From Blastocatellia bacterium (lineage in GTDB: Bacteria; Acidobacteriota; Blastocatellia; UBA7656): 64,000 nt of DNA. The notes below the pieces were generated by a model. The model saw only the letters and a program-made list of their open reading frames with translations, did no database searches and was not told the DNA's origin. Shown here piece after piece: positions 25,805 to 55,047 of this stretch; position 1 is the stretch's first letter; each line of letters opens with the position of its first letter. Location of the stretch: contig JBASRN010000012.1 of NCBI GenBank assembly GCA_049273855.1, positions 4,666 to 68,665 of the forward strand. Direction: 5' to 3'. The position numbers and the translations under genes are program-made.

Positions 25805-27472
25805 ATGGGCAAGAATCGAATGACTGGTGTTAACTCACTCACTCGACTTGGCATCGCTGCTACGGTGTTGATCAGCTTATTCAGCTTTGCGTCCTATTCA
25901 CCTCGCGCCGATGCAGTCGAGACGTCATATGTGGAGTTGGCGGGGGCAAACGGTAGACAGAATAACGTAGTGTTTGCCTTTGACCGGTACGTGCTCATCG
26001 CACCCTACGCGCCGACGGGAATAATCCAGGAGAACGGTGACTTAAGCCAGCTCGACAATCATTACCTATATATCATTGACACCAAGAAACCCGGCGTAGT
26101 TCTAACCAAAGACCTTACTGCGCGCGCGAGTTCGGATTCACCAAGTACGATTTACTACCCTACCAAGCTGGCCTTTGATCCAACAACCCAGACCGCCTTT
26201 GTAAGGGGAACGAGGTTCGAGCAAGAGCGCGGCGAGATCGAGGCCATCGAAGTCATCGCTTACGTACATTTGAATCTCGGAGACAATGGAAAACCAGTTA
26301 TTGATCCGACCGTCGTTTCGTTTGACATCGAGGGCGTAGGTGGGGAGCTGCGCAGCCCGGACGCTCCCACGGACTTGGCTTTGAGTCACAATGGGAACCA
26401 TCTTGTCTTCACAAACGGCGCATCCGTTTTTACGTACAGCCTGGAACAGGGATACCTCTACAAGGTCGACCTGGTGCATCCGAGCGAGTACGGTGCAGGT
26501 AACTTTATCTCATACCTTGCTGTTGATAGAGACAGCAATGTTTTGAGCGTTTACTCCACCAAAAAGGTCGTCGACAAAGACAACGTTGGGCACGACCAGT
26601 CCGAGGTTTCCTTTTACAGGTTGATAGACGACGGGTCTCTCACGCTGCTCAAGCGTGCGTACGCAGAAGATCTCCCGCAAGGGGCGGCGCTCACAGCCGG
26701 GAGTAACGTTGCGGTCTACTCGGACGCTGACAAACTCGATGTCCAGTACGCGCTATTTGTCACGAGCGATGGATCACTTTGTCAGGTGGACCTTCACACT
26801 GACGGATTATCTGCAAACGTCAGACAGTTGGTCGTATTTCCAGAATTGGCTCAACAGGGGTCGGATGACACAGGCCCGCGTTTGGTAAAGTACGATCCAG
26901 CAAAGCGGGTCGTAGGGATTGTGAGCCAGGGATACTCGGCCCAGATCTCCCGGCCCGGGAATGGACGAAGAAGGCGGATCTCTCGGCCAGGTAACCTCCA
27001 CGTATTGACGTCGCAACCCGTGCTCGCAATGGCAAGGTTTGGCAAGAAGGGTAAAGTAACCTCGCGGAACCTGTTCTCCGAGGATTTCAGAGATCAAGGC
27101 GGGTTGTCTGAGCTAGTCCCCGTAAAGGACACCGAGGATTGGTTGATGGCCACCTACTCAGGCAAGCTGCTTTCGATCACGGCATCTGGCGATTTCGAAA
27201 AATCGCGCCCGCAGCTGATTGCCAGTATTGCTCCACGCACAGAGCGGCTCGACTATCTCACCAGCCGCGACAGGTTCGTTGCAGTCCAGTCGTGCGCATC
27301 TGATGAGGAGGCATTGCCGGTAACGCAGCCCGGTTCGGTGGTAGTGGGCAAGGTGATCTCAGCCAACGGAAAGTCTTTGTTGGCAAGCGCAGCACTGATC
27401 TCGCCTTCTTCATCGCCGGTGCTTCGGCAAGCGCCGGCAATACGCAGGCCAGGCAATCTCAAGCGACGATGA
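25805..27472 (+). CDS. Secreted hypothetical protein (555 aa), probable beta-rich/propeller fold
   Basis: Signal peptide ..GIAATVLISLFSFASYSPRADA. No recognisable catalytic motifs. Contains a short internal tandem duplication (ISRPGNGRRRRISRPGN). Confidence 0.55.
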   Translation: MGKNRMTGVNSLTRLGIAATVLISLFSFASYSPRADAVETSYVELAGANGRQNNVVFAFDRYVLIAPYAPTGIIQENGDLSQLDNHYLYIIDTKKPGVVLTKDLTARASSDSPSTIYYPTKLAFDPTTQTAFVRGTRFEQERGEIEAIEVIAYVHLNLGDNGKPVIDPTVVSFDIEGVGGELRSPDAPTDLALSHNGNHLVFTNGASVFTYSLEQGYLYKVDLVHPSEYGAGNFISYLAVDRDSNVLSVYSTKKVVDKDNVGHDQSEVSFYRLIDDGSLTLLKRAYAEDLPQGAALTAGSNVAVYSDADKLDVQYALFVTSDGSLCQVDLHTDGLSANVRQLVVFPELAQQGSDDTGPRLVKYDPAKRVVGIVSQGYSAQISRPGNGRRRRISRPGNLHVLTSQPVLAMARFGKKGKVTSRNLFSEDFRDQGGLSELVPVKDTEDWLMATYSGKLLSITASGDFEKSRPQLIASIAPRTERLDYLTSRDRFVAVQSCASDEEALPVTQPGSVVVGKVISANGKSLLASAALISPSSSPVLRQAPAIRRPGNLKRR

Positions 27473-29586: not shown

Positions 29587-31908
29587 ATGGACCTGATGGA
29601 AGGAAGCAATCGCGCGGGAGAAGGTGATTCTCATTTAGTGTCGGTTCTCAGCAGAATGGGTTTCAAGTCTCTCAGCGAGAAGCTGACCGTGCTGTCACTG
29701 ACGTTGCCTTGCTTGTTGAGCCTGATTGTCTTCGCATGTGTCTATTTGGGCTTTCACAACACACCGCAACAACAGGTCCTCACTGTTGCTGTGATCAGTG
29801 CCAGTGCAATAGGCCTGCTTTCGCTGTTCGGAATGCTGGGCCTTTCCGTGGTCTTCGGCAAGGGAGTGAGCGTCAGTGAAACCAGGCTCGAAAACCTAGT
29901 CGCCGAGCGCAAGCAGTCGGACTTGGTTCACTCCGCCCTTTACCGCATCGCCGAGATGACAAGTTCGGCAGAGGACCTTCCCGCTTTTTATGACGCTGTC
30001 CACAAGATCGTTGGCGGGTTGATGTACGCGGAGAATTTCTTCATTGCTGTATACGAGCCTTCGACCGATCTAGTTAGCTTCCCGTGTTTTGTTGATGTCG
30101 TCGACACCTCCCCTCAACCACGCAAGTTGAAGCGCGGAATGACCGAGTACGTATTGCGGACGGGGCAGCCGCTTCTCTCCTCCCGCGAGAGTATAGAGCC
30201 TCTCGTTAGGCGGGGGGAGATTGAGGTGATAGGAACCATGCCGGCATGCTGGCTGGGCGTTCCTCTCAAACTCGGAGACGAAAGCATCGGCGTGATCGCG
30301 GTGCAAAGCTACAGGGAAGATATTGCGTTCGGCGAGAAAGAAAAGGAAGTCCTCACCTTCGTCTCGCAACATCTGGCAACTGCACTAAATCGTAAGCGCG
30401 CCGACGAGGCGTTGCGAAGGAGCGAAGAGAAGTACCGCACTATCCTTGAGAGCATCGAGGACGGTTATTACGAAGTCGATCTGGGCGGGAACTTGACCTT
30501 CTTCAACGATCCGGTCTGCAAGCTTCACGGATTCTCACCCGACGAGCTGAAAGGTATGAACAACCGTGACTACATGGATCCAGAAGTAGCGCGTAACGTT
30601 CATAAGGAGTTTAACAAGGTCTTTCGTACCGGTGAGCCGAGCGGCGAATTTTCGTACGCGATAAACCGAAAAGATGGTGAGAAGAGACATGTCGAAGCCT
30701 CAATTTCGCTCGTGCGTACTCCCGAGGGCGAGCCAAACGGATTCCGGGGCATCATACGCGACGTAACCGAGCGCCGAAGGTTAAAGGAATCGTTCGAGCG
30801 AAGTATGGACGAATTCCTGTCAATCGTCTCAAAAGTCTCAGAGGGCGACCTGACCCGCCGGGGTGCCCAAGGAGATGACACGCTGGGAAGAGTTGTTCAG
30901 TCGGTTAACAAGATGCTGGATCATTTCAGCACCATGCTCACCGAAGTGAAACAGATAGGGTTATCGGTTTCCTCAAGCGCAACGGAAATCCTTGCAGCCG
31001 CAGAGCAGATTGCGGTCGGCTCGCAGCGTCAGGCCGACGAGATAACTAACACCTCGAGCGCCGTAGAAGAGATGGCCGCATCTATGAATCAGGTTTCCAG
31101 AAATGCAGAAGCGTCTGCCGAAGCCGCTCGGCGCGCGCTCGACATGGCCCAGCACGGAGACAAGTCGGTACGCGACACTTCCGAGGCGATGTCAAGGATT
31201 GACTCCGCAGTCTTGCAGACTTCCGACAAGATGCGTCTGCTCGGCGCTCGGAGCTCGGAGATATCCGAGATCATAGACCTGATCAACGACATCTCCGCGC
31301 AGACCAACCTGCTGGCGCTTAACGCCGCAATCGAAGCCGCTCACGCGGGCGAGGCCGGCCTCGGATTCAGCGTTGTGGCGGACGAGATCAGAAAACTGGC
31401 CGAGCGCTCGGCTCGCGCCACCAAAGATGTGGCGAGCTTGATCAAGTCGATCCAGAACGAAACCTCGGAGGCCCTCCTGGCGATGGAAGCCGGTATGAAC
31501 GAGGTCAAAGGCGGAAGCTCATTAGCGTCGCAAGCGAGTCGAGCGCTTCAAGATATATCCGCGGCCGTACGCCAGTCATCTGAGCTTATCGAGGAAATCT
31601 CGGCAGCCTCCGACGAGCAGGCTCGCGTCACTAGCAATCTAGCCGGCGCAATGCAAACCATCTCGAGCATTACGCTCGAGACCTCGGCCGGTGCTCACGA
31701 GACGGCGCAAACGATTCAGGGCATGGTAGGGCTCTCGGATCGGCTTAACCGTGCCATTTCGCAATTCCGAGTCCAGGACGACTTCATACATCCGTTCGCC
31801 TACGACCCGCCGACTTCAGCAGGCGGAGTTATCGGGCACAGTTCTCAGTCCTTTCGATTGCGACAAGCTGACCGAGTGCGGGACCAGGGAGGCGCGAGTG
31901 ACCGTTAG
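29587..31908 (+). CDS. Methyl-accepting chemotaxis protein with N-terminal TM helices, GAF and PAS sensor domains
   Basis: Two N-terminal TM segments. GAF-like region (..IGVIAVQSYREDIAFGEKE..). PAS (EEKYRTILESIEDGYYEVDL..). MCP signalling domain (LLALNAAIEAAHAGEAGLGFSVVADEIRKLAERSA). Confidence 0.9.
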   Translation: MDLMEGSNRAGEGDSHLVSVLSRMGFKSLSEKLTVLSLTLPCLLSLIVFACVYLGFHNTPQQQVLTVAVISASAIGLLSLFGMLGLSVVFGKGVSVSETRLENLVAERKQSDLVHSALYRIAEMTSSAEDLPAFYDAVHKIVGGLMYAENFFIAVYEPSTDLVSFPCFVDVVDTSPQPRKLKRGMTEYVLRTGQPLLSSRESIEPLVRRGEIEVIGTMPACWLGVPLKLGDESIGVIAVQSYREDIAFGEKEKEVLTFVSQHLATALNRKRADEALRRSEEKYRTILESIEDGYYEVDLGGNLTFFNDPVCKLHGFSPDELKGMNNRDYMDPEVARNVHKEFNKVFRTGEPSGEFSYAINRKDGEKRHVEASISLVRTPEGEPNGFRGIIRDVTERRRLKESFERSMDEFLSIVSKVSEGDLTRRGAQGDDTLGRVVQSVNKMLDHFSTMLTEVKQIGLSVSSSATEILAAAEQIAVGSQRQADEITNTSSAVEEMAASMNQVSRNAEASAEAARRALDMAQHGDKSVRDTSEAMSRIDSAVLQTSDKMRLLGARSSEISEIIDLINDISAQTNLLALNAAIEAAHAGEAGLGFSVVADEIRKLAERSARATKDVASLIKSIQNETSEALLAMEAGMNEVKGGSSLASQASRALQDISAAVRQSSELIEEISAASDEQARVTSNLAGAMQTISSITLETSAGAHETAQTIQGMVGLSDRLNRAISQFRVQDDFIHPFAYDPPTSAGGVIGHSSQSFRLRQADRVRDQGGASDR

Positions 31909-32401
31909 GCGGCAAGTAGTGGTGTTTAAGATCGGGGCAGAAGAATTCGCCGTCGACATACTGCTGACAAAGGAAGTTCTTGTCCCACGAGAGATAACGC
32001 CGGTACCTGATACTGAGGAGTTTGTTGAGGGCGTGATGAATCTCAGGGGAAATCTCTTACCGATAATTGATTTAAGAAAGCGGTTGAGGGCCCGGGCAAC
32101 GCCAACTCAGCGAGAACACCGCATCGTTATAGCGAACATCGATGATCGGACAGCGGGTCTGATTGTCGACGGTGCTTCCGAGGTCATAAGAGTGACTGAT
32201 GACATGATTGAACCTGTGCCCGACGCCATTTCAGAGATGGGCGCGGGGTATGTTGAAGGCGTCATCAACGTGAGGAACAGGTTTATTACACTGATCGATC
32301 TGCGGAAGGCGCTTTCTGGCGAAGTTCTCAGCGAATTGGATTGCGTAATCGAAGCGCTGTCCCGGCTGCGCGAGTTGCCTCCTCCAGCGAAGGCAAGTTG
32401 A
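31898..32401 (+). CDS. cheW: CheW coupling protein
   Basis: CheW domain (VVVFKIGAEEFAVDILLTKEVL..). GTG start with GGGAGG SD. Overlaps the MCP stop. Confidence 0.8.
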   Translation: MTVRRQVVVFKIGAEEFAVDILLTKEVLVPREITPVPDTEEFVEGVMNLRGNLLPIIDLRKRLRARATPTQREHRIVIANIDDRTAGLIVDGASEVIRVTDDMIEPVPDAISEMGAGYVEGVINVRNRFITLIDLRKALSGEVLSELDCVIEALSRLRELPPPAKAS

Positions 32402-32445
32402 CAACTTGCTTCGCCGGATTGGGTTGTTCGTGAGGTTATTAGCCA

Positions 32446-33303
32446 ATGCATCACATTGGATCAGAGTTACGCCAGCCGGAAATCCTTTCTGACAGTGAAT
32501 TCAAGCTGTTCAAGGACCTGATCTACTTCGAGTGTGGCGTCAGCATTGGAAACGAGAAGCGAACATTTCTCGAGTCAAGGCTAAGGAGAAGGATGGATGA
32601 TCTCGGCATCCGAAGCGGCTACGAGTACTACTGCCTCATTAAACACTCGCAGGGAAGATCGCAGGAGCTCCCATCGCTACTCGACACGCTGATGATATGC
32701 GAGACCGCTTTCTTCAGGAATCAGCCGCAGTTTGACCTGCTTAGGCAAGTGGTCCTACCGGAAATCATCGAGAGGAAGGAACGAGCAGGGACGCGCCTGA
32801 TTCGCGTGTGGAGCGCGGGCTGCTCGACCGGTCAGGAGCCATACAGCGCAGTCATCGCGATGCTCGAGTCACTCCCCGAGGCGCAGACATGGACTCTGCG
32901 GGTGTTTGCCTCTGATCTTTCGTTTACAGCGCTCGAGCGCGCGCAAGGCGGAGTTTATAGGGAGGATCAACTGAAAGGAATCGAGCCTGGCTGCATATCG
33001 AAATACTTTCGACGCGAGAACGGCCACTATGCCGTGAGCGATGCGGTAAAGAGACGCGTTATCTTCGACTATCACAATCTGAAGCACGATAACGGGCTTC
33101 GTGGTCTGGACGTGGTTTTTTGCAGAAACGTGATGATCTACTTTGACGGGAATGAGCAACGGCGCCTTATCGCTCGCTTCGGGAATTGCCTTTTGCCAGG
33201 CGGGTATCTCTTTCTTGGTCACGCGGAGAGTTTGCAAGGTTTGTCGGGCAGATTCTCAATGGTACATCGCAACAAAGGCATTGCCTACAAACTGGAGTCG
33301 TGA
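32446..33303 (+). CDS. cheR: CheR-type MCP methyltransferase
   Basis: CheR N-terminal and SAM-binding domains (RVWSAGCSTGQEPYSAVIAM). Confidence 0.9.
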   Translation: MHHIGSELRQPEILSDSEFKLFKDLIYFECGVSIGNEKRTFLESRLRRRMDDLGIRSGYEYYCLIKHSQGRSQELPSLLDTLMICETAFFRNQPQFDLLRQVVLPEIIERKERAGTRLIRVWSAGCSTGQEPYSAVIAMLESLPEAQTWTLRVFASDLSFTALERAQGGVYREDQLKGIEPGCISKYFRRENGHYAVSDAVKRRVIFDYHNLKHDNGLRGLDVVFCRNVMIYFDGNEQRRLIARFGNCLLPGGYLFLGHAESLQGLSGRFSMVHRNKGIAYKLES

Positions 33304-33309
33304 GTTCGA

Positions 33310-35064
33310 ATGGATGAGCTGAGCAAAGAAGAGCTAGAGCAGTTGCTTGAGGTGTTTCGCGAGCAGTCTGTCCGCATTCTTGACGAGATGGGGGACGATC
33401 TGCTGGCGCTCGAAGCCGGAGCAGCGGACCCCGAGATCATGACTCGACTGCGGAGAGCCGCGCATACGATAAAGGGCGATTCGGCTTGTGTCGGCTTCGA
33501 GGGCGTGACCGAGGTAGCGCACCGTATCGAGGATGTCTTCGACGCGGTTCTGAATGGAGAGGTCAAACTGGAGAGGCGAGTCGTTGACCTGGTGCTGCAG
33601 AGCCTCGATGCGCTCCGAGCCGTTGTTGGCGCGGAGGACGTCACCGATCTTGGCGAGCATACCGTCTCGAGCTTGCTGGCTGGCCTCGGAAAGGTCAGTT
33701 CCGAATCTACCGCTTGTGCGATTCACCACGAGGCGAAGCGGCTGGCAAGGCCGGCGGCGGTAGGATCGGACGCTCAATTGCTGCCCGCGGCGGTCGAGCG
33801 AGGCTCAAGGCCCCGTCGAGAGTTTGTCCGCGTCGAAGCCGGGAAGCTGGATGCGCTTATAAACCTCGCCGGCGAGATGGTGATTGCGCGATCTGTTCTC
33901 AACCAGCCAGGTCCAGAGCTTGGTTGCGTGCTCGCGGCGCATGAGTTGGCAGGCAGCTTCAGCAGCGCCAACGCGCAGATCGGCAAGCTCATATCCGAGC
34001 TTCAGAAGAGCGTTCTCAAGATGAGAATGGTGACGATCGACAACGTCTTCAAGAGGTTCGCAAGGCCGATGCGCGAGCTTGCAAGCGCGACGGGGAAGCA
34101 GATCGAATTTGGGTTCGGCGGCGGTGAGACTGAGCTTGACCGAGCGCTGGTTGACGTTCTCTATGAACCGCTCCTTCACCTGCTACGAAACGCTATCGAT
34201 CACGGCCTTGAAGTGACAAACGAACGAATTGCTTGCAGCAAGCCGGCGGTTGGCCGAATAGCCTTGCGAGCTTATCACGAAGGCAATCAAGTGGTCGTCG
34301 AGGTTAGCGATGATGGTCGTGGGCTAGATTCAGCCAAGCTGAAACAGCGCGCGCTGCAACTCGGCTTGATCTCAAAGCAAGAAGCCGAACAGATGGATGA
34401 CGAAGACGCGCTCGGGCTGGTTTTTCGCCAGGGCTTTTCCACCTCCAAGGAACTTACGCGGCTCTCCGGGCGGGGAATTGGCGCGTCGACAGTCAAAAGC
34501 GTCGTCGAGCAGCTACGAGGAACTGTCAGCGTCAAGAGTCAGTCGGGTGTGGGGACGACGTTCGCGCTTCGGATGCCGCTGACGCTCGCAATAATCAGAG
34601 CGCTGCTATTTAAGGCCGGGGGGCGGCTGTTTGCTCTTCCGCTTCTAGTCGTAAGCGAGATAGTTCGTTTGGACGTCAACGAGATCGTGCACATAGATGG
34701 CCTCGAGGCGTATAGGCTTCGCGATTGCTTCATCTCGGTTTTTAGACCGTGTGACGTGCTCGGATTCGAACGGCGCAAAGGCGGCGTCGGCGCTGCCTTG
34801 AGGGCCGAAAGCCAACAGTTATTTGGCATGGTCTTGGCAACCGGATCGAAACGGTATTGTCTGATCGCAGACGAATTGATTGGTGAGCAGGAACTGGTCA
34901 TCAAGCCGCTTGATAGTCGCTGGTTACAGAACGACGCCCTTGCTGGAGCAGCGGTCCTTGGCGACGGCCGAGTGGCGCTGATTATGGACGCTGAGATGCT
35001 TTTTCGCCGAGCAGTAAAGCAGGAACGAAATAAAGGAGCCGCGAGGGAGACTTATGCAGTCTAG
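33310..35064 (+). CDS. cheA: CheA histidine kinase
   Basis: Hpt domain (AAHTIKGDSACVGF). HATPase (LRNAIDHGLE.., GRGIGAS). C-terminal CheW-like domain. Confidence 0.9.
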   Translation: MDELSKEELEQLLEVFREQSVRILDEMGDDLLALEAGAADPEIMTRLRRAAHTIKGDSACVGFEGVTEVAHRIEDVFDAVLNGEVKLERRVVDLVLQSLDALRAVVGAEDVTDLGEHTVSSLLAGLGKVSSESTACAIHHEAKRLARPAAVGSDAQLLPAAVERGSRPRREFVRVEAGKLDALINLAGEMVIARSVLNQPGPELGCVLAAHELAGSFSSANAQIGKLISELQKSVLKMRMVTIDNVFKRFARPMRELASATGKQIEFGFGGGETELDRALVDVLYEPLLHLLRNAIDHGLEVTNERIACSKPAVGRIALRAYHEGNQVVVEVSDDGRGLDSAKLKQRALQLGLISKQEAEQMDDEDALGLVFRQGFSTSKELTRLSGRGIGASTVKSVVEQLRGTVSVKSQSGVGTTFALRMPLTLAIIRALLFKAGGRLFALPLLVVSEIVRLDVNEIVHIDGLEAYRLRDCFISVFRPCDVLGFERRKGGVGAALRAESQQLFGMVLATGSKRYCLIADELIGEQELVIKPLDSRWLQNDALAGAAVLGDGRVALIMDAEMLFRRAVKQERNKGAARETYAV

Positions 35065-36142
35065 CAAGATTCGAGTGTTGGTCGTAGACGACTCAGCAGT
35101 CATGCGCAAGCTCATCTCGAAGTACCTTGAGAAGGACCCCGATATCGAAGTGGTCGCAACCGCGATCGACGGTGACTTCGCCTTGAGCAAAGTCGATCAA
35201 CTCAAGCCTGACGTTGTTACCCTGGACGTCGACATGCCCAGGATGGACGGGATCACCGTGCTTGGTCACATCGTAGCGAAGCACGACATCTCCGTGGTTA
35301 TGCTGAGTTCATTAACTGCGCGCGGCGCTTCTCTGACCATGCGCGCATTGGAGAAGGGTGCTGTTGATTTCATTTGCAAGCCCGGCGACCCCTCGCAAAT
35401 CGGCACGATGGCGGCTGAACTCATCTCGAAGATAAAAGGCGCCTCGCGAGGAAAGATCGTCGCGGCAAACAACCGGGCCCTCGATATACGAGTCACTAAG
35501 ACTAGACCGGCCTACGTCCCGCGCGGATCGAAAGCTCAGAAGATAGTAGCCATTGGGGCGTCTTCGGGTGGCCCGCACGCACTCAGATACCTGTTGCCGA
35601 GAATTCCGGCTGATCTGAATGCGTGTTTGTTGATCGTTCAGCATATGCCTGAGAGCTTCACTTCTATGCTGGCCCGCTGGCTCGACGAGATATGCGATCT
35701 CGAGGTCAGAGAGGCTACGGAGGGCGATTTGATCGCGCCCGGACGGGCGTTAATCGCGCCGGCGTGCGCGCATATGAAGGTACGTCGAGGTCGTTTTGGT
35801 TGCGAGGTCAAGCTTGAGCGCAGCGCTGTGGTAAATGGCCATATGCCTTCAGTTGATGTGCTGTTTCGATCCGTGGCGGCCGAGTACGGCAAACACGCAT
35901 TGGGAGTAATCATGACCGGGATGGGAAGCGATGGAGCCTTGGGCATTGGCGAGATCAAGAAGGCCGGAGGCACGACATTTGGTCAGAATAAAGAGAGCTG
36001 CTCGGTGTTCGGAATGCCGCGAGTTGCCATCGAAAAGGGCTTTGTTGATGAGATCGTGCCGCTCACTGAGATGGCTTCACGTGTAATAGCCGAGGTGGGC
36101 AGGGTGTCAGTTGGGGAGGAATGCCATGCGTTCAGTCGCTGA
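35054..36142 (+). CDS. cheB: CheB methylesterase/response regulator
   Basis: N-terminal receiver (VLVVDDSAVMR..DVDMPRMDG). C-terminal CheB methylesterase (AIGASSGGPHAL..). Confidence 0.9.
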   Translation: MQSSKIRVLVVDDSAVMRKLISKYLEKDPDIEVVATAIDGDFALSKVDQLKPDVVTLDVDMPRMDGITVLGHIVAKHDISVVMLSSLTARGASLTMRALEKGAVDFICKPGDPSQIGTMAAELISKIKGASRGKIVAANNRALDIRVTKTRPAYVPRGSKAQKIVAIGASSGGPHALRYLLPRIPADLNACLLIVQHMPESFTSMLARWLDEICDLEVREATEGDLIAPGRALIAPACAHMKVRRGRFGCEVKLERSAVVNGHMPSVDVLFRSVAAEYGKHALGVIMTGMGSDGALGIGEIKKAGGTTFGQNKESCSVFGMPRVAIEKGFVDEIVPLTEMASRVIAEVGRVSVGEECHAFSR

Positions 36143-45427: not shown

Positions 45428-46699
45428 CTACTTTGCTGCCGCAGCACTCTTCCTGTCTTTCGCTTTTCTATCATTAAAGAAGTCGTTGATCCAGTGATAC
45501 TGGCTTACGTACTTGCTGGTCTCGTTCCGAAAAATGGGTCGCGTATACTTCTTCACCACGTACCGCGTGCGAATGCGTCCACGTGTTCGGACTTTCACCG
45601 GCACTCGTTTTGTTACGGTCATCGTCGGCCTGCTGGTGCCGTCTGGCGACTCCATCCATTCGTTCTGATCGTGCGCCAAAACTGAGAGGACGCGGCCCAC
45701 GCCTCCGTTGTAAGCCGCAGCCAGATACGGCCCTATTCGATCCCGCGGGATAAAACTCCGGGAATTAATCGCTTCCCAATCAGCGTCGCACAGGAGGATT
45801 TGAGCCACCACTGCATTGACCGGATCACCCATGCAAGCAAAGAAGTTTGATGGCAGCCCTGCGCTGGGATATTTGCGCAGCAGTAACGAGTAGGTAGAGG
45901 GGATCATCTGCACCAGTCCACGAGCGCCCGCGGGGCTGATTGAGTAGGCGTATGCATTCTCGCGGTTCGTAGCGATGATCGTCAGCACCCGCGCCACCAG
46001 CGTTCGAGCCAGTCCCGCGCTCTTAAACTCACCGGGATCGATGTGCTCGTTCACCAGGAGGACTCGCAGCACGTCTTGCGGGATGACTTCGGTGATCTTA
46101 TGGCCCGGGAGCGCCCGCGAGAGGATACCCCGGCTCGAAAGGCGGGAGTAAGCCCTGTCGATGAAGTGATCTGCTACTTCAATCCCACGTTCAATGACTG
46201 CGTCATTCTTCACCTCAGCCGAATATGGAGTATAGAGAGCTTGGATAACTGAGGGTCCGGGACCGAACCTCTGACCCTCGTTGGACACCGGGTATTTTAC
46301 CGCCAAGACCTTGCCGCCGGGCGGCTCGATACACTGAATGTCTGAATTAATCCCGTTCTCCCGACGCATTGAAAGGGTCAGGCCAGGAGTTAAGACCTCG
46401 AACCCCGGATCGCGCTTGATCGCGCGGGCTATTCGGATCTTGCCGCCGGGTTCCATCACTGCGAGCGCCATCTCGCGCCCAATGATCCCGGTGACGGGCA
46501 CCTCCACGAACCTGCGCCGGCCAACTCGGATTCGCCGAGTGCCGACAGTTCCCATTAAGATCTTCACAGACTCGTCTTTCAGGTGTTCCCTTCCCTCTTC
46601 GATCTTTGCAAGCAAGGGGTCGGCATAATGTTTAGTGTCGGAATCAGCGAAAGCGGTTCCGAGGAGGAAACCAATGAGGAGCGGCGCAGTGCAGGTCAT
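45428..46699 (-). CDS. Lytic transglycosylase (SLT domain) protein, secreted
   Basis: Signal peptide MTCTAPLLIGFLLGTAFA. SLT catalytic region (..RGLVQMIPSTYSLLLRKY..). Confidence 0.75.
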   Translation of the reverse strand: MTCTAPLLIGFLLGTAFADSDTKHYADPLLAKIEEGREHLKDESVKILMGTVGTRRIRVGRRRFVEVPVTGIIGREMALAVMEPGGKIRIARAIKRDPGFEVLTPGLTLSMRRENGINSDIQCIEPPGGKVLAVKYPVSNEGQRFGPGPSVIQALYTPYSAEVKNDAVIERGIEVADHFIDRAYSRLSSRGILSRALPGHKITEVIPQDVLRVLLVNEHIDPGEFKSAGLARTLVARVLTIIATNRENAYAYSISPAGARGLVQMIPSTYSLLLRKYPSAGLPSNFFACMGDPVNAVVAQILLCDADWEAINSRSFIPRDRIGPYLAAAYNGGVGRVLSVLAHDQNEWMESPDGTSRPTMTVTKRVPVKVRTRGRIRTRYVVKKYTRPIFRNETSKYVSQYHWINDFFNDRKAKDRKSAAAAK

Positions 46700-46820
46700 C
46701 TGAAACTCCCACGCTTGAATAAAGGGCATGTAGATAGTAGCAGGCGGGCATCAATCAGCTCAACAGTTTTGTCCGACGCAACATATTCGTAATGGTTGCC
46801 GATCTGCTTGCGCTTCGAGT

Positions 46821-48444: not shown

Positions 48445-50025
48445 CTACAGACCTGCGTAAGAATGCAAACCTGGCAACAAAAAGCTCACGCCCAGCCACG
48501 TGAATATCACCAGAGCGAAACCGAGCAATGCAAAGTAGGCGCTTCGCCGGCCGCGCCATCCGTGGGCGATGCGGGTGTGCAAGAAGCCGGCGTACGCAAT
48601 CGTCGCCACAAGCGCCCCGGTCTCCTTTGAGTCCCATCCCCAGTAACGGCCCCAAGACTCGTTCGCCCACACTGCTCCCGTGATCAACAGCAACACCAAC
48701 AGCGGGAATGCCACGCCGACCGTTCGATATAGCAGGCTGTCGATCTTCTGAATATCAGGTAGCGCACTCACAACTTCTTCTCGCTTCCAGGCGAACAGCG
48801 ACACGCAAATCAGCGCGACCATTAGTCCGATCAAGCCTCCAAAGTCGACGGGGTTCGCGCTAGGTTTTAGTGTAAAGCTACCCGCATTGTCTTGAATCCA
48901 TTGCTTCGCTCGATCGACTGAGACGGGTTGCTGCGTCTGTTCCGACATCCATGCGGCGAAAATCGGATACTCTCGCTCAGGGATGTTACCTAGGATGTTG
49001 CCGGCGTTCTTTACCTGAATGAAGAGCATCGCAACCACGATGATTTGCACTACCGCCGCAGCGCGGAAGAGCGACCAACCCCGCTTGGATGTTTTCTCGT
49101 CCTCTCCGAAGCGACCCATCAAAAACATCGCCAATGCCCCGGTAAGCAACAACAGCGCGATCACCATTAGCGGTCCCACTATAGGAAGTTCTGTTCGAAT
49201 CGGGAGAAATCTCTCCATCGAGTTGCTGAATACGCTTACCGTGTACCGCCCTTGAAATGGCACGCCGAAATGTACAATCGAACGCTCGAAAGTGCCAACG
49301 GTGAAGAACACCAGCAAGCCGTAGAGTATTACTGCGAATCCAACGGCTTCGGTGCGGACCCCGTCCTTGAGCAGATAAGCGAAAGCAAGTCCAAAGCTCA
49401 ACAGACACACGCCATAGCCAATCGTTGCAATGGAAACGTGAATCGGCCGCCAGTAGCTGTCCAGAATCGGCGGCAAGGTTTGAATTGCGCTACCCAGCAA
49501 CATCCCGAGCGCCAGCACAACAACGAGGATCGGCATCGACAGAGCGCCAAGCATTCGATACTTTGGCTTGCGAATGACTACCAATGTCGCAAGCGCCGCT
49601 CCTGCGCAAAACCCCATCGTTAATGCGTAGAGGTTGTCGAGCGGGTAGTAGCGCCAGAATCCGTTTATTCCTTGTTTCCAACCTTCTTTGTCACCGGCTT
49701 CAATCCAGCGAATCATCCACCCCGAGAGATTGAAGAAATACCCGAGCGAAACCGAGATCAGACCGAGCCTGTCGAGAACACTCTCTTTGACAAACAGGTT
49801 GGTCAGCAGTACGACCGCAGCGCTGATATAGCATACCAATGCCAGCAGAATCAGCGCTTCGCCATACAGAAATCCTACCGCGCGCCCAGCGTAGATGCGT
49901 GCTCCAAGTAGCAGCATCGTTCCCGCAACGGGGGCGATGATCGGCCACAATCCGACAATCTTCTTCGGCCAGCTCAGTTCCAACTCTGGCAGCATAGCCT
50001 CCTCACGACTTATGGCTCTACTCAT
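48445..50025 (-). CDS. ccsA: Cytochrome c biogenesis protein CcsA/ResC (system II)
   Basis: Polytopic membrane protein with the Trp-rich WWD motif WANESWGRYWGWDSKE. Confidence 0.85.
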   Translation of the reverse strand: MSRAISREEAMLPELELSWPKKIVGLWPIIAPVAGTMLLLGARIYAGRAVGFLYGEALILLALVCYISAAVVLLTNLFVKESVLDRLGLISVSLGYFFNLSGWMIRWIEAGDKEGWKQGINGFWRYYPLDNLYALTMGFCAGAALATLVVIRKPKYRMLGALSMPILVVVLALGMLLGSAIQTLPPILDSYWRPIHVSIATIGYGVCLLSFGLAFAYLLKDGVRTEAVGFAVILYGLLVFFTVGTFERSIVHFGVPFQGRYTVSVFSNSMERFLPIRTELPIVGPLMVIALLLLTGALAMFLMGRFGEDEKTSKRGWSLFRAAAVVQIIVVAMLFIQVKNAGNILGNIPEREYPIFAAWMSEQTQQPVSVDRAKQWIQDNAGSFTLKPSANPVDFGGLIGLMVALICVSLFAWKREEVVSALPDIQKIDSLLYRTVGVAFPLLVLLLITGAVWANESWGRYWGWDSKETGALVATIAYAGFLHTRIAHGWRGRRSAYFALLGFALVIFTWLGVSFLLPGLHSYAGL

Positions 50026-51598
50026 TGTCTGATCCTCCTCGTGGCACTCCAGTTATGGACTGTACCAGCAAATTGAATCGGCCCTCGAAAGCGGGACGGT
50101 TCCGATTCGTGTTTCCGCCAAAGTAGATCTTCGACCCTTGTCCATCAGGTTCTATCACCGCCCACACTCGCTGATGCGATAGGAAAAACACGAAGCATAA
50201 AGCCAAACAAAGCAGCGTGAACCCGATGTAGACCGGAGTTCGTCCCGGGTCGTACTGGATCGTCAAGATATGGAAGGTCGAAACTTTCTCAAAATCTCGA
50301 AGAATGATCTTGTGGCCGTTTACCAACAGCGGGTTCGTTCCACCGTCCGGGCCCAGCTTGTCGTTTGCTTTCGACATGTATTCTTCGGCAACCCGAGGGT
50401 TGAACGCGAACGCCGAGCTTCGTTTGCCATCGGCATTCAGGATTTCAAGCTGAACGGCCGGATTGTTGTAGTTGGGCGAGATCGTCGTAGGGCCCGAGTC
50501 CTCGATCTCAAAATCGGGATAGAAATCCAGATACCTAACAGTCCCGATTCCGGAAACTTCAGCGCTGCCGTTGCGGATTATCTTCACCGGCTGAATGGCT
50601 GATGTGCCCCCGGTGGCCGGCTCAAAGCTAAGAGTTATCTCGCGAGCATTGCCCACCGGCGAAAATTGAGATTGGAAGAACCTATAACCGCGATAGTCGC
50701 CCACGTTGTTCAAATGCACAAGCAGGTCCTTCTGAGCCGCGCCGTCTTTGATCGTTATGTAGCTCAACCAATCGATCGTGTTCTCAGCTCCCAATCCGCC
50801 CTCGGGCCTGATTAGCTTCTGTTGCAAGTCGCGGCATTCAACCTGGAAAGGAAGCGCGATTGCCATCTGCCTCGGACCTTGATCGATCGTGATTTCGGTA
50901 GTCGTGAACTTATCTGCGGCCTTGCCAGGTCTAAGCTCCATCGCGCCGCCAACGCCGTAACGGCTCGTCAGAAATCCTCCAGTGAAGATGGTCAGCAACG
51001 CGACGTGCACTACGTACGCGCCGAGGCGGTTTAGCACATTGCGCTGCGCGAAGACGGTCACGCGACTCTTCTCCTGGCTGATCCGCGCGCGGAACCCGTG
51101 TGCCTTCCACGCGGCCCGTACGTTTTCTGCAACGATACTGGGCGCCGCGCGGTCGGACGACTCGGCGTTGAACATCTGCGCAGCTATGAACTTCGGGGAA
51201 GCTGTGAGCTTCGGCTTGCGCACATACTGCCAAGCCGCCGGGAAACGATCGATCGACGCCAGAATAATGTTGAGTCCGGTGATAGCCAGAAGCAGCAGGA
51301 AATACCGCGAACGATATATGTCGAAGAAGTTGAGGGCTCCGTAGACCGTCTTCTGTGAAGCCGAGAGAGTCGCGTAGTACTTGTCGAATCCGTCGACGTT
51401 GACCTGCATGATTAGCATACCGATCATGCAGCAGATCAGAAGGACGCCTAGCATCGTGACGCCAAAGCGAACCGAACTGAGGAGGCGGAGCACCTTGTCA
51501 AGCACTGAATCGCTTTTCTGCGAAGTGACTTTAACGGTCGGCCCAGCGCCAGTTGGAGTCTCGGTCTTCGACCCTAATTCAGTTTCAGTTGTTGCCAT
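50018..51598 (-). CDS. ccsB: Cytochrome c biogenesis protein ResB/CcsB
   Basis: ResB-like topology: N-terminal TM, large periplasmic domain, C-terminal TM. Overlaps ccsA by 8 nt. Confidence 0.85.
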   Translation of the reverse strand: MATTETELGSKTETPTGAGPTVKVTSQKSDSVLDKVLRLLSSVRFGVTMLGVLLICCMIGMLIMQVNVDGFDKYYATLSASQKTVYGALNFFDIYRSRYFLLLLAITGLNIILASIDRFPAAWQYVRKPKLTASPKFIAAQMFNAESSDRAAPSIVAENVRAAWKAHGFRARISQEKSRVTVFAQRNVLNRLGAYVVHVALLTIFTGGFLTSRYGVGGAMELRPGKAADKFTTTEITIDQGPRQMAIALPFQVECRDLQQKLIRPEGGLGAENTIDWLSYITIKDGAAQKDLLVHLNNVGDYRGYRFFQSQFSPVGNAREITLSFEPATGGTSAIQPVKIIRNGSAEVSGIGTVRYLDFYPDFEIEDSGPTTISPNYNNPAVQLEILNADGKRSSAFAFNPRVAEEYMSKANDKLGPDGGTNPLLVNGHKIILRDFEKVSTFHILTIQYDPGRTPVYIGFTLLCLALCFVFFLSHQRVWAVIEPDGQGSKIYFGGNTNRNRPAFEGRFNLLVQSITGVPRGGSDNE

Positions 51599-51803: not shown

Positions 51804-52325
51804 CTACTTTTTTGGCTCAGAAGGCCTAAGCTCGCCGCGACTGGGCAGAGCGCGCGGGTCCATTTCAAGCAGGTTGACAACGACAGTCGCCACGTCTTCG
51901 GGTGCCAGCTTCCACGAAGTTCCCGGGTCTTGCTCGCCGCCTCGACCGAAGCCTGTGTTTACGGAGCCTGGCATAACGTAGCTTACGCGAATGTGGTCGT
52001 AGCGGGCTTCCTGCATCAACGCCTCCGTAAAATCTATCAGCGCGAACTTCGATGCACAGTACGAAGCCCCTCCAGGAAACGCGTTCTTTCCTGCAAGGCT
52101 GCCGATGTTTATGATGTAATCTCTCACATCGCACGCGGTGCCCTGAATACGGTCGCCGTATTCTGAGCTTAGGGTAGCCACGGTCTGCTCGACATCGGCT
52201 GAGGTGCGAGCGCAGACAAAGACATTAGCGCGTCGTTGCAGGAGTGTTCGCGAAATCGCGAGTCCTATTCCCTCGTCGCTCCGGTGACGATTGCCGACTT
52301 TCCTTCGATATTGCTCAAGAACCAA
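51804..52325 (-). pseudogene. Short-chain dehydrogenase/reductase (SDR) remnant
   Basis: Only 173 aa. The cofactor motif reads KVGNRHRSDEGIG, but the +1 frame of the same nucleotides encodes KVAIVTGA. Inserting one g further on restores SEGIG. This is a compensating double frameshift. In addition, about 75 aa are missing between ..CDVRDY and IINIGSLAG. The YCASK catalytic region is retained. TTG start. Confidence 0.6.
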
Positions 52326-52346
52326 CTTGTGCGAACTATCGCTATT

Positions 52347-52994
52347 TCAACCCGTAAACGAGTACCCGAGTCGCCGCGCCAGACGATAGACGAGAGGTAT
52401 TGGAAGACCTACCACGTTCGAATAGTTCCCTGCTATCTCTTCGACAAACATCGCCGCCACACCTTGAATGCCGTACGCGCCCGCTTTGTCCATCGGCTCG
52501 CCGCTTTCAACGTACCAATCGATTTCCTGGTCGGTTAATCTGGCGAACCTGACCAGAGTCTTTTCATAGTCGGCTACCTCACGATGGCTGGCTGCATCGA
52601 AAAGAGCGACCCCCGTCAGGACCGCGTGCCAGCGGCCAGACAACTCGCGCAACATTCGCCGAGCGTCTTGCTGGCTGCCGGGCTTCTCCATTAACACTCC
52701 ATCAAGAACCACAACGGTATCCGCGCCGATGATCAGGCCGGCATCGCGGTGCCTCGCCACGGCGACAACTTTAGCGCGTGCCAGGCGTGTGATATAATCG
52801 CCGGGCGGTTCATCAGGATGAGCCCGCTCTTGAACGAGGCTGGGAACGATCTGAAAGTCGACACCGATGGCTGCCAGCAGATCGGCACGCCGGGGCGACG
52901 AAGAAGCAAGGATGATTTCTGGTTCGCTTTCACGCATCGATCGTTGGCAGTAAAGAGCCCCAAAATTCCTGTTTGCGTCGTTGCCGAAGTCCAA
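52347..52994 (-). CDS. maf: Maf-like nucleoside triphosphate pyrophosphatase
   Basis: ILASSSPRRADLL .. Maf family signature throughout. Confidence 0.85.
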   Translation of the reverse strand: MDFGNDANRNFGALYCQRSMRESEPEIILASSSPRRADLLAAIGVDFQIVPSLVQERAHPDEPPGDYITRLARAKVVAVARHRDAGLIIGADTVVVLDGVLMEKPGSQQDARRMLRELSGRWHAVLTGVALFDAASHREVADYEKTLVRFARLTDQEIDWYVESGEPMDKAGAYGIQGVAAMFVEEIAGNYSNVVGLPIPLVYRLARRLGYSFTG

Positions 52995-53023
52995 GATATT
53001 TTGATCGAACTTGGAGGTCTACC

Positions 53024-54571
53024 TTGCGCCGCAAGATTTCGCTGTTGATCATAGTCGCATTTGTGGCCGCGCTCGCATCGATCAATCACGGTTGCTCTCG
53101 TTCGTCGGATCCGGATGCGGAGATGGACGGCAGCGTAAGTTTTGATCTCAGCGACCCCAAGCTAAAAGAGCGGCTCGGCGAAGATGATGGTTATGCTTTT
53201 GCTGTTCTGTATGGCGCCGACATTCACGGCAGCCTCGAGACCTGTGGCTGACCAAGCCACCCTATGGGTGGACTGGCACGGCGTGTCAGCTATATCAAGG
53301 CCTTTAAGCAAAGATCGAATTTAGAAGTACCCGCCTTGTTCGTCGACGCGGGCAACCTGTTCAGCGATGATCGCACCGTCGGCGATCAATTGTCCGCTGA
53401 GGTTATGACAAAAAACAAATGGGTAGTCAAGGAATACGGAAATGTTCGCCACGATGCGGCGAACATCGGCTACCACGATTTGCCCTACCTCGGCGAGTTG
53501 CTCAAGAAGGAGGGCTATGACAAGAGGGTGGAGCAGTATCCGTTCATAGAGCAACTGATATCGGCGAACATTCAACCGGTTGACGACCAGCGTCGAGCGC
53601 CGGCTCCTTACGTAATTCGCGAAATCACCCTCAAGCGGGGGGTGCCCGGCAAGAAGCTTCGAGTGGGAATAGTTGGCTTCACCGAGGCCAAGTCAATCAA
53701 CAATATCGATAAGCAATTGGTTTACGGCGGCTTTCGTGTGGACGACGTGTTTGAGTCGGCGAAAAAGGTATTGCCTGAGTTGAAGCAGAAGACTGATTTC
53801 ATCGTTGCGCTTGCCTACGTGCCATCCGACGTCGCACAACGGCTGGCTAGCGAGAACCCGGAGATAGACACCATCATCGGCGCACGGCAGCTTAACAGCA
53901 TGGATGAGCCTCAGCACTTCAACCGGGCCACAATCGCCTACGCCTACAACCAGACCAAGTACCTTGGCGAGATGCGAGTCTACGTGAAGAGCGACGGGAC
54001 TGTTGAGAACCAGGTGAACCGGTTTGTCGCACTTGATTCCTCGATACCCGACGATTCATCGGCCCTCGAAGCGGTGACAGCCGCGCACGATGAGTTCACC
54101 AAGTTGCAGAACGAAGCCGCTCAGTCGCGGTTTGGCGGCAACGGGACTTCGGCCCTGGAGAGCGCAGCGTTGTCTCCCTTCGTGGGAGGCGCCACCTGCG
54201 CGGGATGTCACGTGGAGGAGGACAGGATATGGTCCACGACGAGGCATGCCCACGCGATGGCCACGCTCGAGGAAAAGAAACAACAGTTCGACAACGAGTG
54301 CGTCGGATGTCACGTGGTCGGTTTTGAGAAGGGGGGCTTTCAGTCGCTGATAACTACGCCGCAGTTCGCAAATGTACAGTGCGAGTCGTGTCACGGCCCG
54401 GGCCGAGAGCATGCCGGCAACCCGGGCAAAGGCTACGGGCTGGTGGCAACGCCGGTCGGCTGCACACAGTGCCACGCTCCGCCAAACGACCCCGACTTTG
54501 ATTTCGCGGTCTACTGGCCGAAGATAAAGCACGGAAGTACGGACCCGATCGCTAGCGCCAAAGTGCCATGA
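53024..54571 (+). CDS. Secreted 5'-nucleotidase/metallophosphoesterase-like domain fused to a C-terminal tetraheme cytochrome c domain; the ORF contains an in-frame TGA at 53249-53251
   Basis: TTG start with GGAGG SD. Signal peptide MRRKISLLIIVAFVAALA. Metallophosphatase motif I GADIHGSLE precedes the TGA. UshA-like motifs GGLARRVSYIK / LFVDAGNLFSDD follow it in the same frame. Four CxxCH motifs near the C-terminus (CAGCH, CVGCH, CESCH, CTQCH). Confidence 0.6.
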
Positions 54572-54585
54572 ATCGGACCTGACCT

Positions 54586-55047
54586 GTGGTTACCGTTATG
54601 TTGACCGAGTTGCTCGCGCTGCTTCCCCGGATGATTCGCCAGTCGGGCGATTCAGATGAAGCGCGCGAACAGGCGGCGTTCGCCGCGTGGGAAGTAGGGG
54701 CAGGCTCTCATGTCCGCAGGGTCACCAGGCCGGTGAAGCTCGAGCGAAAAACGCTGATCGTTGCCGTCCCCGATGCAACCTGGCGAACGCAGCTTGGTCA
54801 AATGCGAGGGCAGTTCCTGTTCAAGCTCAACTCGCTGCTGGGCAGCCCCCTGGTGACCTCGCTCGAGTTTGTTGTAAACCCGAGTCTGATCGGCAGCGAC
54901 GTACAGTCCCCTCAATCTGTTCAGTTCATCGCCCCCGAAAGAGAGGCGCTTCCCCTGCGCGAGCAGGCCGACCGGATCGCTGATCCGGAGATCCGCGCAG
55001 CCTACCTGCGCGCGGCTGGAAAATGCCTGGAAAGAAGGGCCAGATGA
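54586..55047 (+). CDS. DUF721 (DciA-like) protein
   Basis: ..AAFAAWEVGAGSHVRRVTRPVKLERKTLIVAVPDATWRTQLGQMRGQFLFKLNSLLG fits the DUF721 pattern. Confidence 0.55.
   Translation: MVTVMLTELLALLPRMIRQSGDSDEAREQAAFAAWEVGAGSHVRRVTRPVKLERKTLIVAVPDATWRTQLGQMRGQFLFKLNSLLGSPLVTSLEFVVNPSLIGSDVQSPQSVQFIAPEREALPLREQADRIADPEIRAAYLRAAGKCLERRAR

Follow-up and report, generated by a model that had tools for sequence, protein, structure and literature searches.

UshA-type enzymes, such as E. coli UshA and the 5'-nucleotidases, carry a metallophosphatase-fold N-terminal domain followed by a C-terminal nucleotide-binding domain. The SoxB thiosulfohydrolase belongs to the same fold superfamily; it is a periplasmic protein with a dimanganese site and acts in the sulfur-oxidising system alongside c-type cytochromes. 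Cytochrome c554 of Nitrosomonas is a free-standing electron carrier. A family entered as "UshA-like, COG0737, CxU" has been in the selenoprotein literature since 2008; it is entered by the GOS selenoproteome study (PMC2398784) and by the reviews PMC9312934 and PMC13188914, none of which states a function for it. The NCBIfam model for these proteins, NF041198 (UshA_like_PCGU, "UshA-like (seleno)protein"), has 519 positions and describes an UshA-like N-terminus, a multihaem C-terminus, and a Cys-x-selenocysteine (Sec) or Cys-x-Cys pair on the loop after the first phosphoesterase motif. Here, we describe a relative of this family encoded at positions 53024-54571 (plus strand) of a 64,000-nucleotide stretch of DNA from a Blastocatellia bacterium (contig JBASRN010000012.1, positions 4,666 to 68,665; hereafter the window). 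Its reading frame is interrupted by one in-frame TGA. On the comparative sequence evidence below, the gene very probably encodes one exported, probably lipid-anchored selenoprotein of 515 residues in which this UGA is read as Sec.

Translation of 53024-54571 gave a single frame of 515 codons and a terminal stop, and the sole internal stop was the TGA at 53249-53251, which is codon 76. An earlier sequence-only reading of this DNA had proposed such a frame, with a signal peptide, the GADIHGSLETCG, GGLARR and LFVDAGNLF motifs and four CxxCH motifs distributed along it, and we recovered all of these in frame; the context of the internal stop is GADIHGSLETCG-TGA-PSHPMGGLARR, and LFVDAGNLF follows later. 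The start codon is the TTG at 53024, and its arrangement with an upstream GGAGG recurs in related loci. The predicted N-terminal hydrophobic signal ends in G-C-S, and these residues (G23, C24 and S25) hardly vary in the close full-length homologues, which suggests that the product is an exported lipoprotein. The Cys that had been noticed two residues before the candidate Sec is Cys74 of the C74-G75-U76 motif, and it is invariant in all clades. The features of the gene are as follows.

53013-53017, plus strand: Shine-Dalgarno-like motif GGAGG, lying 6 nt before the TTG start codon, read from the sequence.
53024-54571, plus strand: complete coding sequence with the predicted Sec at codon 76 and an ordinary TGA stop at 54569-54571, assigned from translation, the NF041198 match and tblastn.
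53024-53095, plus strand: predicted signal peptide with a probable lipoprotein cleavage and acylation site (MRRKISLLIIVAFVAALASINHG-C24), assigned from the sequence pattern.
53186-54133, plus strand: predicted UshA/5'-nucleotidase-type metallophosphatase-fold domain with most canonical metal ligands substituted, assigned from a structure model, Foldseek and HMMER.
53243-53251, plus strand: candidate C-x-U motif Cys74-Gly75-Sec76 (TGT GGC TGA), assigned from its invariance across clades.
54185-54532, plus strand: C-terminal tetrahaem cytochrome c554-like domain (CAGCH, CVGCH, CESCH, CTQCH), residues 388-503, assigned from Pfam PF13435 and a profile search against the PDB.
54197-54211, 54299-54313, 54380-54394 and 54461-54475, plus strand: the four CxxCH motifs, from translation, all invariant in the family.

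We compared the TGA codon across relatives by scanning one genome per species, which yielded 80 loci, nearly all labelled Blastocatellia or Acidobacteriota. The close set consisted of 41 loci that cover the TGA region at 57-83% identity, and the alignments of 42 sequences used below are this set together with the window. TGA occupied the identical codon in all 41 close loci and the frame continued beyond it, as the tblastn matches crossing the TGA in 41 loci also showed; TAA or TAG was present in none. The context in the close loci was always ETCG-TGA-P(S/A)HP(M/L)GGLARR, with PAHP in a few only. TGA was found again in three distant loci of approximately 31-34% identity, in the form EPCG-TGA-PRNPAGGLARR. 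An internal stop could also arise in this one genome through nonsense mutation or as a lesion in a pseudogene, or by a mistake in sequencing or assembly, and such events do occur in the window: the neighbouring short-chain dehydrogenase (SDR) gene at 51804-52346 (minus strand) has a frameshift and a deletion of approximately 68 codons. However, the identical TGA recurs in 41 independent species-level assemblies and in the three distant loci, and the assemblies that bear it come from different studies, samples and assemblers. Both flanks of the TGA are also under purifying selection in the same frame. Moreover, approximately 100 of the best 120 protein-database matches have 419-437 residues and begin just past the TGA codon, pointing to a common gene-calling artefact rather than a private lesion. 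We consider the probability of a lesion or error at this codon to be negligible.

Across the wider family, the aligned codon alternates between Sec and Cys. In a clade approximately 40% identical to the window protein, 32 loci carry Cys (TGT/TGC) at this codon (EVCGCPIHPLGGVARR), so that codon 76 is TGA in 44 loci and TGT/TGC in 32. A search of metagenomes added 10 full-length homologues and one partial homologue with Cys at the aligned position (NCGCPxNPMGGLAWR), at approximately 55-67% identity over the region. E72, C74, G75, C/U76 and P77 are invariant across all aligned clades. The sequence-only reading had proposed that homologues be aligned at this position, and the residue there is either a Sec codon or Cys. 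The divergent gene maf lies near the UshA-like gene in 41/41 Sec loci, 16/32 Cys loci and 3/3 distant loci, and dciA lies downstream of it in 40/41, 25/32 and 2/3, respectively. Because the Cys clade often keeps the maf and dciA neighbours at approximately 40% identity, the Sec and Cys forms look orthologous, and the exchange of Sec for Cys appears to occur between syntenic orthologues. TGA is also the ordinary stop of 11 of the 20 Pfam-verified genes of the window, among them this gene (stop at 54569-54571); therefore, the genetic code is not reassigned.

An arrangement of two genes would place a 75-residue lipoprotein ending at the TGA before a separate protein of 435 residues that starts at ATG 53264. 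This ATG sits four codons after the TGA, and gene callers do return products of 435 and approximately 420 residues. However, ATG 53264 is replaced by CTG (Leu) in 5 of the 42 sequences and has no ribosome-binding site before it. The downstream piece contains four CxxCH motifs that need haem attachment in the periplasm, yet it has no signal peptide. In addition, the Cys-form homologues are single continuous proteins, and the invariant motif E-x-C-G-U/C-P-x-x-P-x-G-G spans the TGA. Ahead of the TGA, codons vary synonymously in the ordinary way and the amino acids are conserved, indicating that the upstream piece of 75 codons is translated in frame. The grounds on which two genes had previously been argued against, i.e., the missing signal peptide of the second piece and the continuity of motifs, both hold, and we regard this arrangement as extremely improbable, if marginally less so than a lesion. 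These sequence comparisons in effect rule out nonsense mutation, sequencing error and an arrangement of two genes alike. The earlier proposal of one protein with the TGA as Sec agrees with the TGA in 41/41 close loci, with the Sec/Cys alternation and with the codon constraint 3' of the UGA that is described next.

The coding sequence immediately downstream of the TGA is constrained beyond its amino acids. Over codons +1 to +13 in the 42 sequences, the mean codon entropy was 0.28 bits and 42% of the positions used a single codon, compared with 1.25 bits and 0.6% for 177 conserved codons elsewhere in the gene. The frozen synonymous sites are the paired sites of two tandem hairpins; in hairpin 1, for example, the His codon CAC and the Gly codon GGT are invariant. 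Variation is free at the third position of the Pro codon in the hairpin 1 loop, where all four bases occur, and at the unpaired third position of the Gly codon between the hairpins. The two RNA elements are as follows.

53257-53271, plus strand: hairpin 1, CCACCC-UAU-GGGUGG, -8.8 kcal/mol, 100% paired in 42 sequences; this is the core of the hairpin reported in the sequence-only reading.
53273-53289, plus strand: hairpin 2, CUGGCAC-GGC-GUGUCAG, a probable SelB-binding selenocysteine insertion sequence (SECIS) stem-loop; its stem has 7 bp, and its 3-nt loop, GGC, begins 28 nt after the UGA.

The longer form in which hairpin 1 had first been drawn (53252-53276) folds at -13.6 kcal/mol, and the z-scores were -2.3 for the core and -3.1 for the extended form. 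The single-sequence fold of hairpin 1 is thus modestly better than shuffles (z = -0.8 in its 71-nt context), and its significance comes from its conservation across genomes. Hairpin 2 folds at -7.1 kcal/mol alone and at -18.3 kcal/mol jointly with hairpin 1, and it shares UGG 53274-53276 with the extended stem. It is likewise 100% paired in the 42 sequences: one A-U pair is changed to G-C by compensatory substitution in four loci (L020, L021, L031 and L041), and the remaining single changes all keep wobble pairing.

Under the bacterial SECIS (bSECIS) model, the loop must span 3-9 nt and have a G within its first two positions, the stem must measure 4-16 bp, the separation from the UGA must be 16-37 nt and the minimum free energy must be -7.5 kcal/mol or lower (PMC13188914). 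Loop (GGC), stem (7 bp) and spacing (28 nt) of hairpin 2 all fall within these rules. Hairpin 1 falls outside them, as its loop begins at a distance of 11 nt from the UGA and neither of the loop's first two nucleotides is a G. Therefore, the hairpin reported earlier exists, folds and is conserved but departs from the bSECIS spacing and loop-G rules, and the comparison with bacterial SECIS models that had been suggested with it leads to its neighbour: hairpin 2, rather than hairpin 1, is most likely the SelB-binding element, as judged from its fit to the model. The locus resembles the bSECISearch consensus (PMC13188914) and the E. coli fdhF SECIS in having a stem-loop within the coding sequence, immediately 3' of the UGA; it differs in that two tandem conserved hairpins are present instead of one. 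Among the three distant Sec loci, L078 and L080 have an analogous hairpin of other sequence, whose GGUCUG loop is 18 nt from the UGA and whose energy is -10.6 kcal/mol. We also considered folding energy over 45 nt as a discriminator between the two forms; the values were -18.5 ± 1.2 kcal/mol for Sec-form loci and -15.5 ± 3.1 kcal/mol for Cys-form loci, a difference too small to serve as evidence.

Several observations weigh against the assignment of this gene as a selenoprotein. Hairpin 2 alone, at the energy given above, is slightly weaker than the bSECIS threshold of -7.5 kcal/mol. Covariation is thin, amounting to the one compensatory pair, because the hairpin region is 97% identical across loci. 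No Rfam SECIS family matched the window at gathering thresholds or, with E up to 10, a 151-nt segment around the TGA, for which the search returned a spurious microRNA match only; the lack of an Rfam match is usual for bacterial SECIS elements. An alternative long-range stem, 53244-53251/53286-53293 (GUGGCUGA/UCAGCUAU), encloses the UGA, is 98% compatible with the 42-sequence alignment and is mutually exclusive with hairpin 2; it shows no compensatory changes and nine mismatched cells. The Gly codon GGC before the UGA and the Tyr codon UAU at +14 are also invariant, and this stem might explain their invariance. The score of the window protein against NF041198, with Sec entered as Cys, was 273.4 bits, which is 1.6 bits under the curated equivalog cut-off of 275. 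Finally, neither the 64-kb window nor the 10-kb flanks of the 44 Sec-form loci yielded selA, selB, selD or tRNA-Sec. ARAGORN detected no tRNA genes in the window or in these loci (approximately 800 kb of related flanks), scans for the SelA motif SGDKLLGG and the GTPase motif GHVDHGKT returned nothing in the window or the loci, a scan of the loci for the SelD-type motif GxGCK gave one spurious match only, and Pfam scans of 30 open reading frames (ORFs) of the window revealed no sel genes.

The missing machinery genes in the window and flanks bear on a further explanation, in which the UGA is recoded to a residue other than Sec and the hairpins serve as the recoding signal. Cys could be inserted by a selC*/SelB*-like tRNA, or the codon could be read by a suppressor allo-tRNA or by near-cognate read-through. 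SelC* tRNA(Cys) opal suppressors with a dedicated SelB* are described from delta-proteobacteria, and Acidobacteria have unusual allo-tRNAs with a possible role as nonsense suppressors (PMC5389517). The UGA is followed by C, which is a leaky termination context. However, selC* is unreported for Acidobacteria in PMC5389517, and alternation of Sec and Cys at a conserved redox-type C-x-C position is the classic signature of a selenoprotein. NCBI and three surveys annotate the family as selenoprotein, and Sec-utilising Acidobacteria are documented; the Sec-decoding trait is recorded at phylum level (PMC1794560 and PMC12013277). Insertion of another residue therefore keeps only a small probability, larger than that of a lesion or of two genes. 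For decoding as Sec, we propose that the UGA at 53249-53251 would be read in response to an mRNA element within the coding sequence, formed by the hairpins at 53257-53289, with hairpin 2 chiefly recruiting SelB with Sec-tRNA(Sec). It is highly likely that Sec would be inserted at this codon in this way and that a single exported protein would result.

We then placed the protein within the known family. NF041198 matched it over both domains with E = 3.4e-81, in two stretches, the best of which aligned protein residues 332-494 with profile positions 352-518. Other Acidobacteriota members, including Sec forms entered with Cys and natural Cys forms, scored 256-266 bits. On the basis of these scores, the Acidobacteriota group lies just outside the curated boundary of NF041198, and the window clade would therefore be a sister group that NCBI's pipeline leaves unnamed. 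The protein is alike to the model in length (515 residues versus 519 positions), in its UshA-like N-terminus and multihaem C-terminus, and in the position of the Cys-x-Sec/Cys pair on the loop after the first phosphoesterase motif. It differs in that its motif is T-C-G-U, whereas that of the model is P-C-G-U, and in the lipoprotein-type signal of its clade, which is absent from PCGU-type relatives. The sequence-only reading had called the fusion of the two domains unusual; this description does not stand, as NF041198 already spans both domains and the family appears in three selenoprotein surveys. The protein is thus a further, sub-threshold and mis-annotated member of a catalogued family, and the selenoprotein family itself is not new. 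In the literature that we searched, we found no paper joining selenocysteine with a nucleotidase and multihaem protein, nor one joining Blastocatellia with selenocysteine.

The shortened database products of approximately 420-435 residues are mis-called Sec forms from which the N-terminal 75 codons and the Sec codon have been lost. Their names (e.g., P0017, P0039 and P0079) include "multiheme c-type cytochrome", "hypothetical protein" and "2',3'-cyclic-nucleotide 2'-phosphodiesterase". An exact-sequence search for the window's own 435-residue product returned no record. The TGA together with the sub-cut-off NF041198 score explains why GenBank contains shortened entries named "multiheme c-type cytochrome".

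The N-terminal domain retains a hydrolase fold with little of its metal site. The structure model and the Foldseek query were those of a Cys homologue, P0100, in place of the window protein; its N-terminal domain was predicted with a pLDDT of 85-97 and matched E. coli UshA (1hp1, E = 1.3e-16; 1ush, E = 2.0e-16) and, more weakly, SoxB (2wdc, E = 1.5e-13). At the sequence level, the window protein shows similarity to YfkN (3gve) and CpdB. HMMER alignment to YfkN showed that GD is changed to GN, GNHE to GYHD and the His of motif IV to Tyr, and the GHxH motif is unrecognisable in alignments to YfkN and CpdB. DxH(G) is the only dimetal ligand motif kept in the window protein, and family-wide the Asp and His of motif I vary too (e.g., TGNIQG and SADIGG). 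The Pfam scan of the protein gave no Metallophos match at E below 0.1 and no match to 5_nucleotid_C (PF02872). The earlier description of an UshA-like metallophosphatase is right for the fold and for DxHG, and fails for the other dimetal ligand motifs, which are substituted. As judged from these alignments, the canonical dimetal ligands are largely lost in the window protein, and the loss is family-wide.

The residues that the family does keep lie elsewhere: G-x-(L/I)-E-x-C-G-(U/C)-P-x-x-P-x-G-G is invariant, as are N131, W133, N147, D152 and S180-A181-N182. In the UshA fold, this loop comes after the first metal-binding motif, and so the C-G-U/C loop may overlie the former dimetal site. Compared with UshA and the 5'-nucleotidases, the window protein has the same N-terminal fold, with a cytochrome domain where these enzymes have the nucleotide-binding domain and with substituted ligand motifs. 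Compared with SoxB, the ligands of the dimanganese site are mostly absent, and SoxB has neither the Cys-x-Sec loop nor a fused haem domain. SoxB had been offered as a distant analogy; this holds for the fold and does not extend to family membership, as the SoxB profile TIGR04486 scored 26.6 bits against a cut-off of 550.

The C-terminal domain matched Pfam PF13435 at 53.7 bits (cut-off 20.8), and the family profile matched cytochrome c554 (1bvb) with E = 7.8e-16 over approximately 100 residues. Like c554, this domain has four CxxCH motifs; unlike that carrier, it is fused to a catalytic-looking domain. Outside the CxxCH motifs, only three histidines (H408, H463 and H503) are invariant for four haems, and one haem may therefore be five-coordinate or have a different distal ligand, as in cytochrome c554. 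In System II cytochrome c maturation, CxxCH motifs need haem attachment in the periplasm.

The genes around the UshA-like gene are as follows.

48445-51598, minus strand: System II cytochrome c maturation genes ccsA (Cytochrom_C_asm) and resB, assigned from Pfam, approximately 1.4 kb upstream of the UshA-like gene.
52347-52994, minus strand: maf, the divergent neighbour.
54586-55047, plus strand: dciA, the downstream neighbour.

The order maf, UshA-like gene and dciA is conserved well beyond the Sec clade, for which function or housekeeping synteny are both possible reasons. The neighbours resB, ccsA, ABC, lolA, pmbA and tldD are conserved within the Sec clade only, ccsA/resB being present in 30-34 of its 41 loci. 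Between maf and resB lies the SDR gene mentioned above, whose frameshift falls within the TGxxxGIG Rossmann motif; SNIEGKSAIVTGATRE* is read in one frame, and the ORF resumes in another. Approximately 68 codons are missing after "CDVR" relative to the intact orthologues of approximately 245 residues in L001, L002, L003 and L013, and the gene looks like a pseudogene or the product of assembly errors.

Elsewhere in the window, a chemotaxis cluster occupies 29587-36142 (plus strand) and includes a methyl-accepting chemotaxis protein with GAF and PAS domains, cheR, cheA and cheB. The only other plausible same-frame pair in the window, at 32446-35064, was set aside as a split ORF; it consists of two ordinary genes, cheR (32446-33303) and cheA (33310-35064), which share a frame and are separated by a TGA and two codons. 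The ORF at 45428-46729 (minus strand, 433 residues) had no Pfam match at E of 1e-3 or better and has relatives in 16 of the 41 Sec-clade loci, and the ORF at 25805-27472 (plus strand, 555 residues) had no Pfam match at E of 1e-4 or better. Among the scanned loci, 13 (L007, L009, L019, L034, L042, L047, L056, L059, L061, L063, L064, L077 and L078) have record titles that name unrelated taxa, including "uncultured Clostridia", "Heliomicrobium", "Heliobacteriaceae", "Gammaproteobacteria" and "Acidimicrobiia", despite an Acidobacteriota-type gene and synteny, which suggests mislabelled taxonomy of metagenome-assembled genomes.

For the function of the protein, we propose the following mechanism. 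Haem attachment in the periplasm would fall to the System II machinery, for which resB and ccsA at 48445-51598 are candidates. Cys74-x-Sec76 would cycle between selenol/thiol and selenenylsulfide as a two-electron redox centre, and the four haems would link it to the respiratory chain for the exchange of electrons. The substrate may be a small periplasmic molecule, for instance a peroxide or an inorganic species of sulfur or selenium, and not a phosphate ester; phosphoester hydrolysis by the window protein is unlikely because most metal ligands are lost. In P0100, the Cys-Gly-Cys loop (residues 71-84), which corresponds to C-x-U, and the haem domain were low-confidence in the structure model, which counts against this mechanism. 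We therefore put forward Cys-x-Sec/haem redox chemistry on a small periplasmic oxidant or chalcogen compound as a tentative proposal, somewhat short of probable. That the fold is no longer a metallo-hydrolase at all, an invariant Cys-Gly-Sec loop connected to four haems having taken the place of its dimetal centre, is a more doubtful idea and on present evidence unlikely.

Reading the TGA as Sec would restore the signal peptide and the catalytic loop to this protein and add a selenoprotein to a major group of soil bacteria. The mis-annotation touches the 41 Sec-form loci as well as approximately 100 of the best 120 metagenome matches. The invariant C-G-U/C loop, the loss of metal ligands and the haem wire together give a concrete hypothesis of new redox chemistry on an old hydrolase fold. 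If this hypothesis is true, the protein would represent a mechanistically new class of periplasmic selenoenzyme, e.g., a selenoperoxidase coupled to the respiratory chain or a sulfur/selenium oxidoreductase, and Blastocatellia would have in this enzyme a core gene, near-universal and syntenic, that current annotation systematically truncates.

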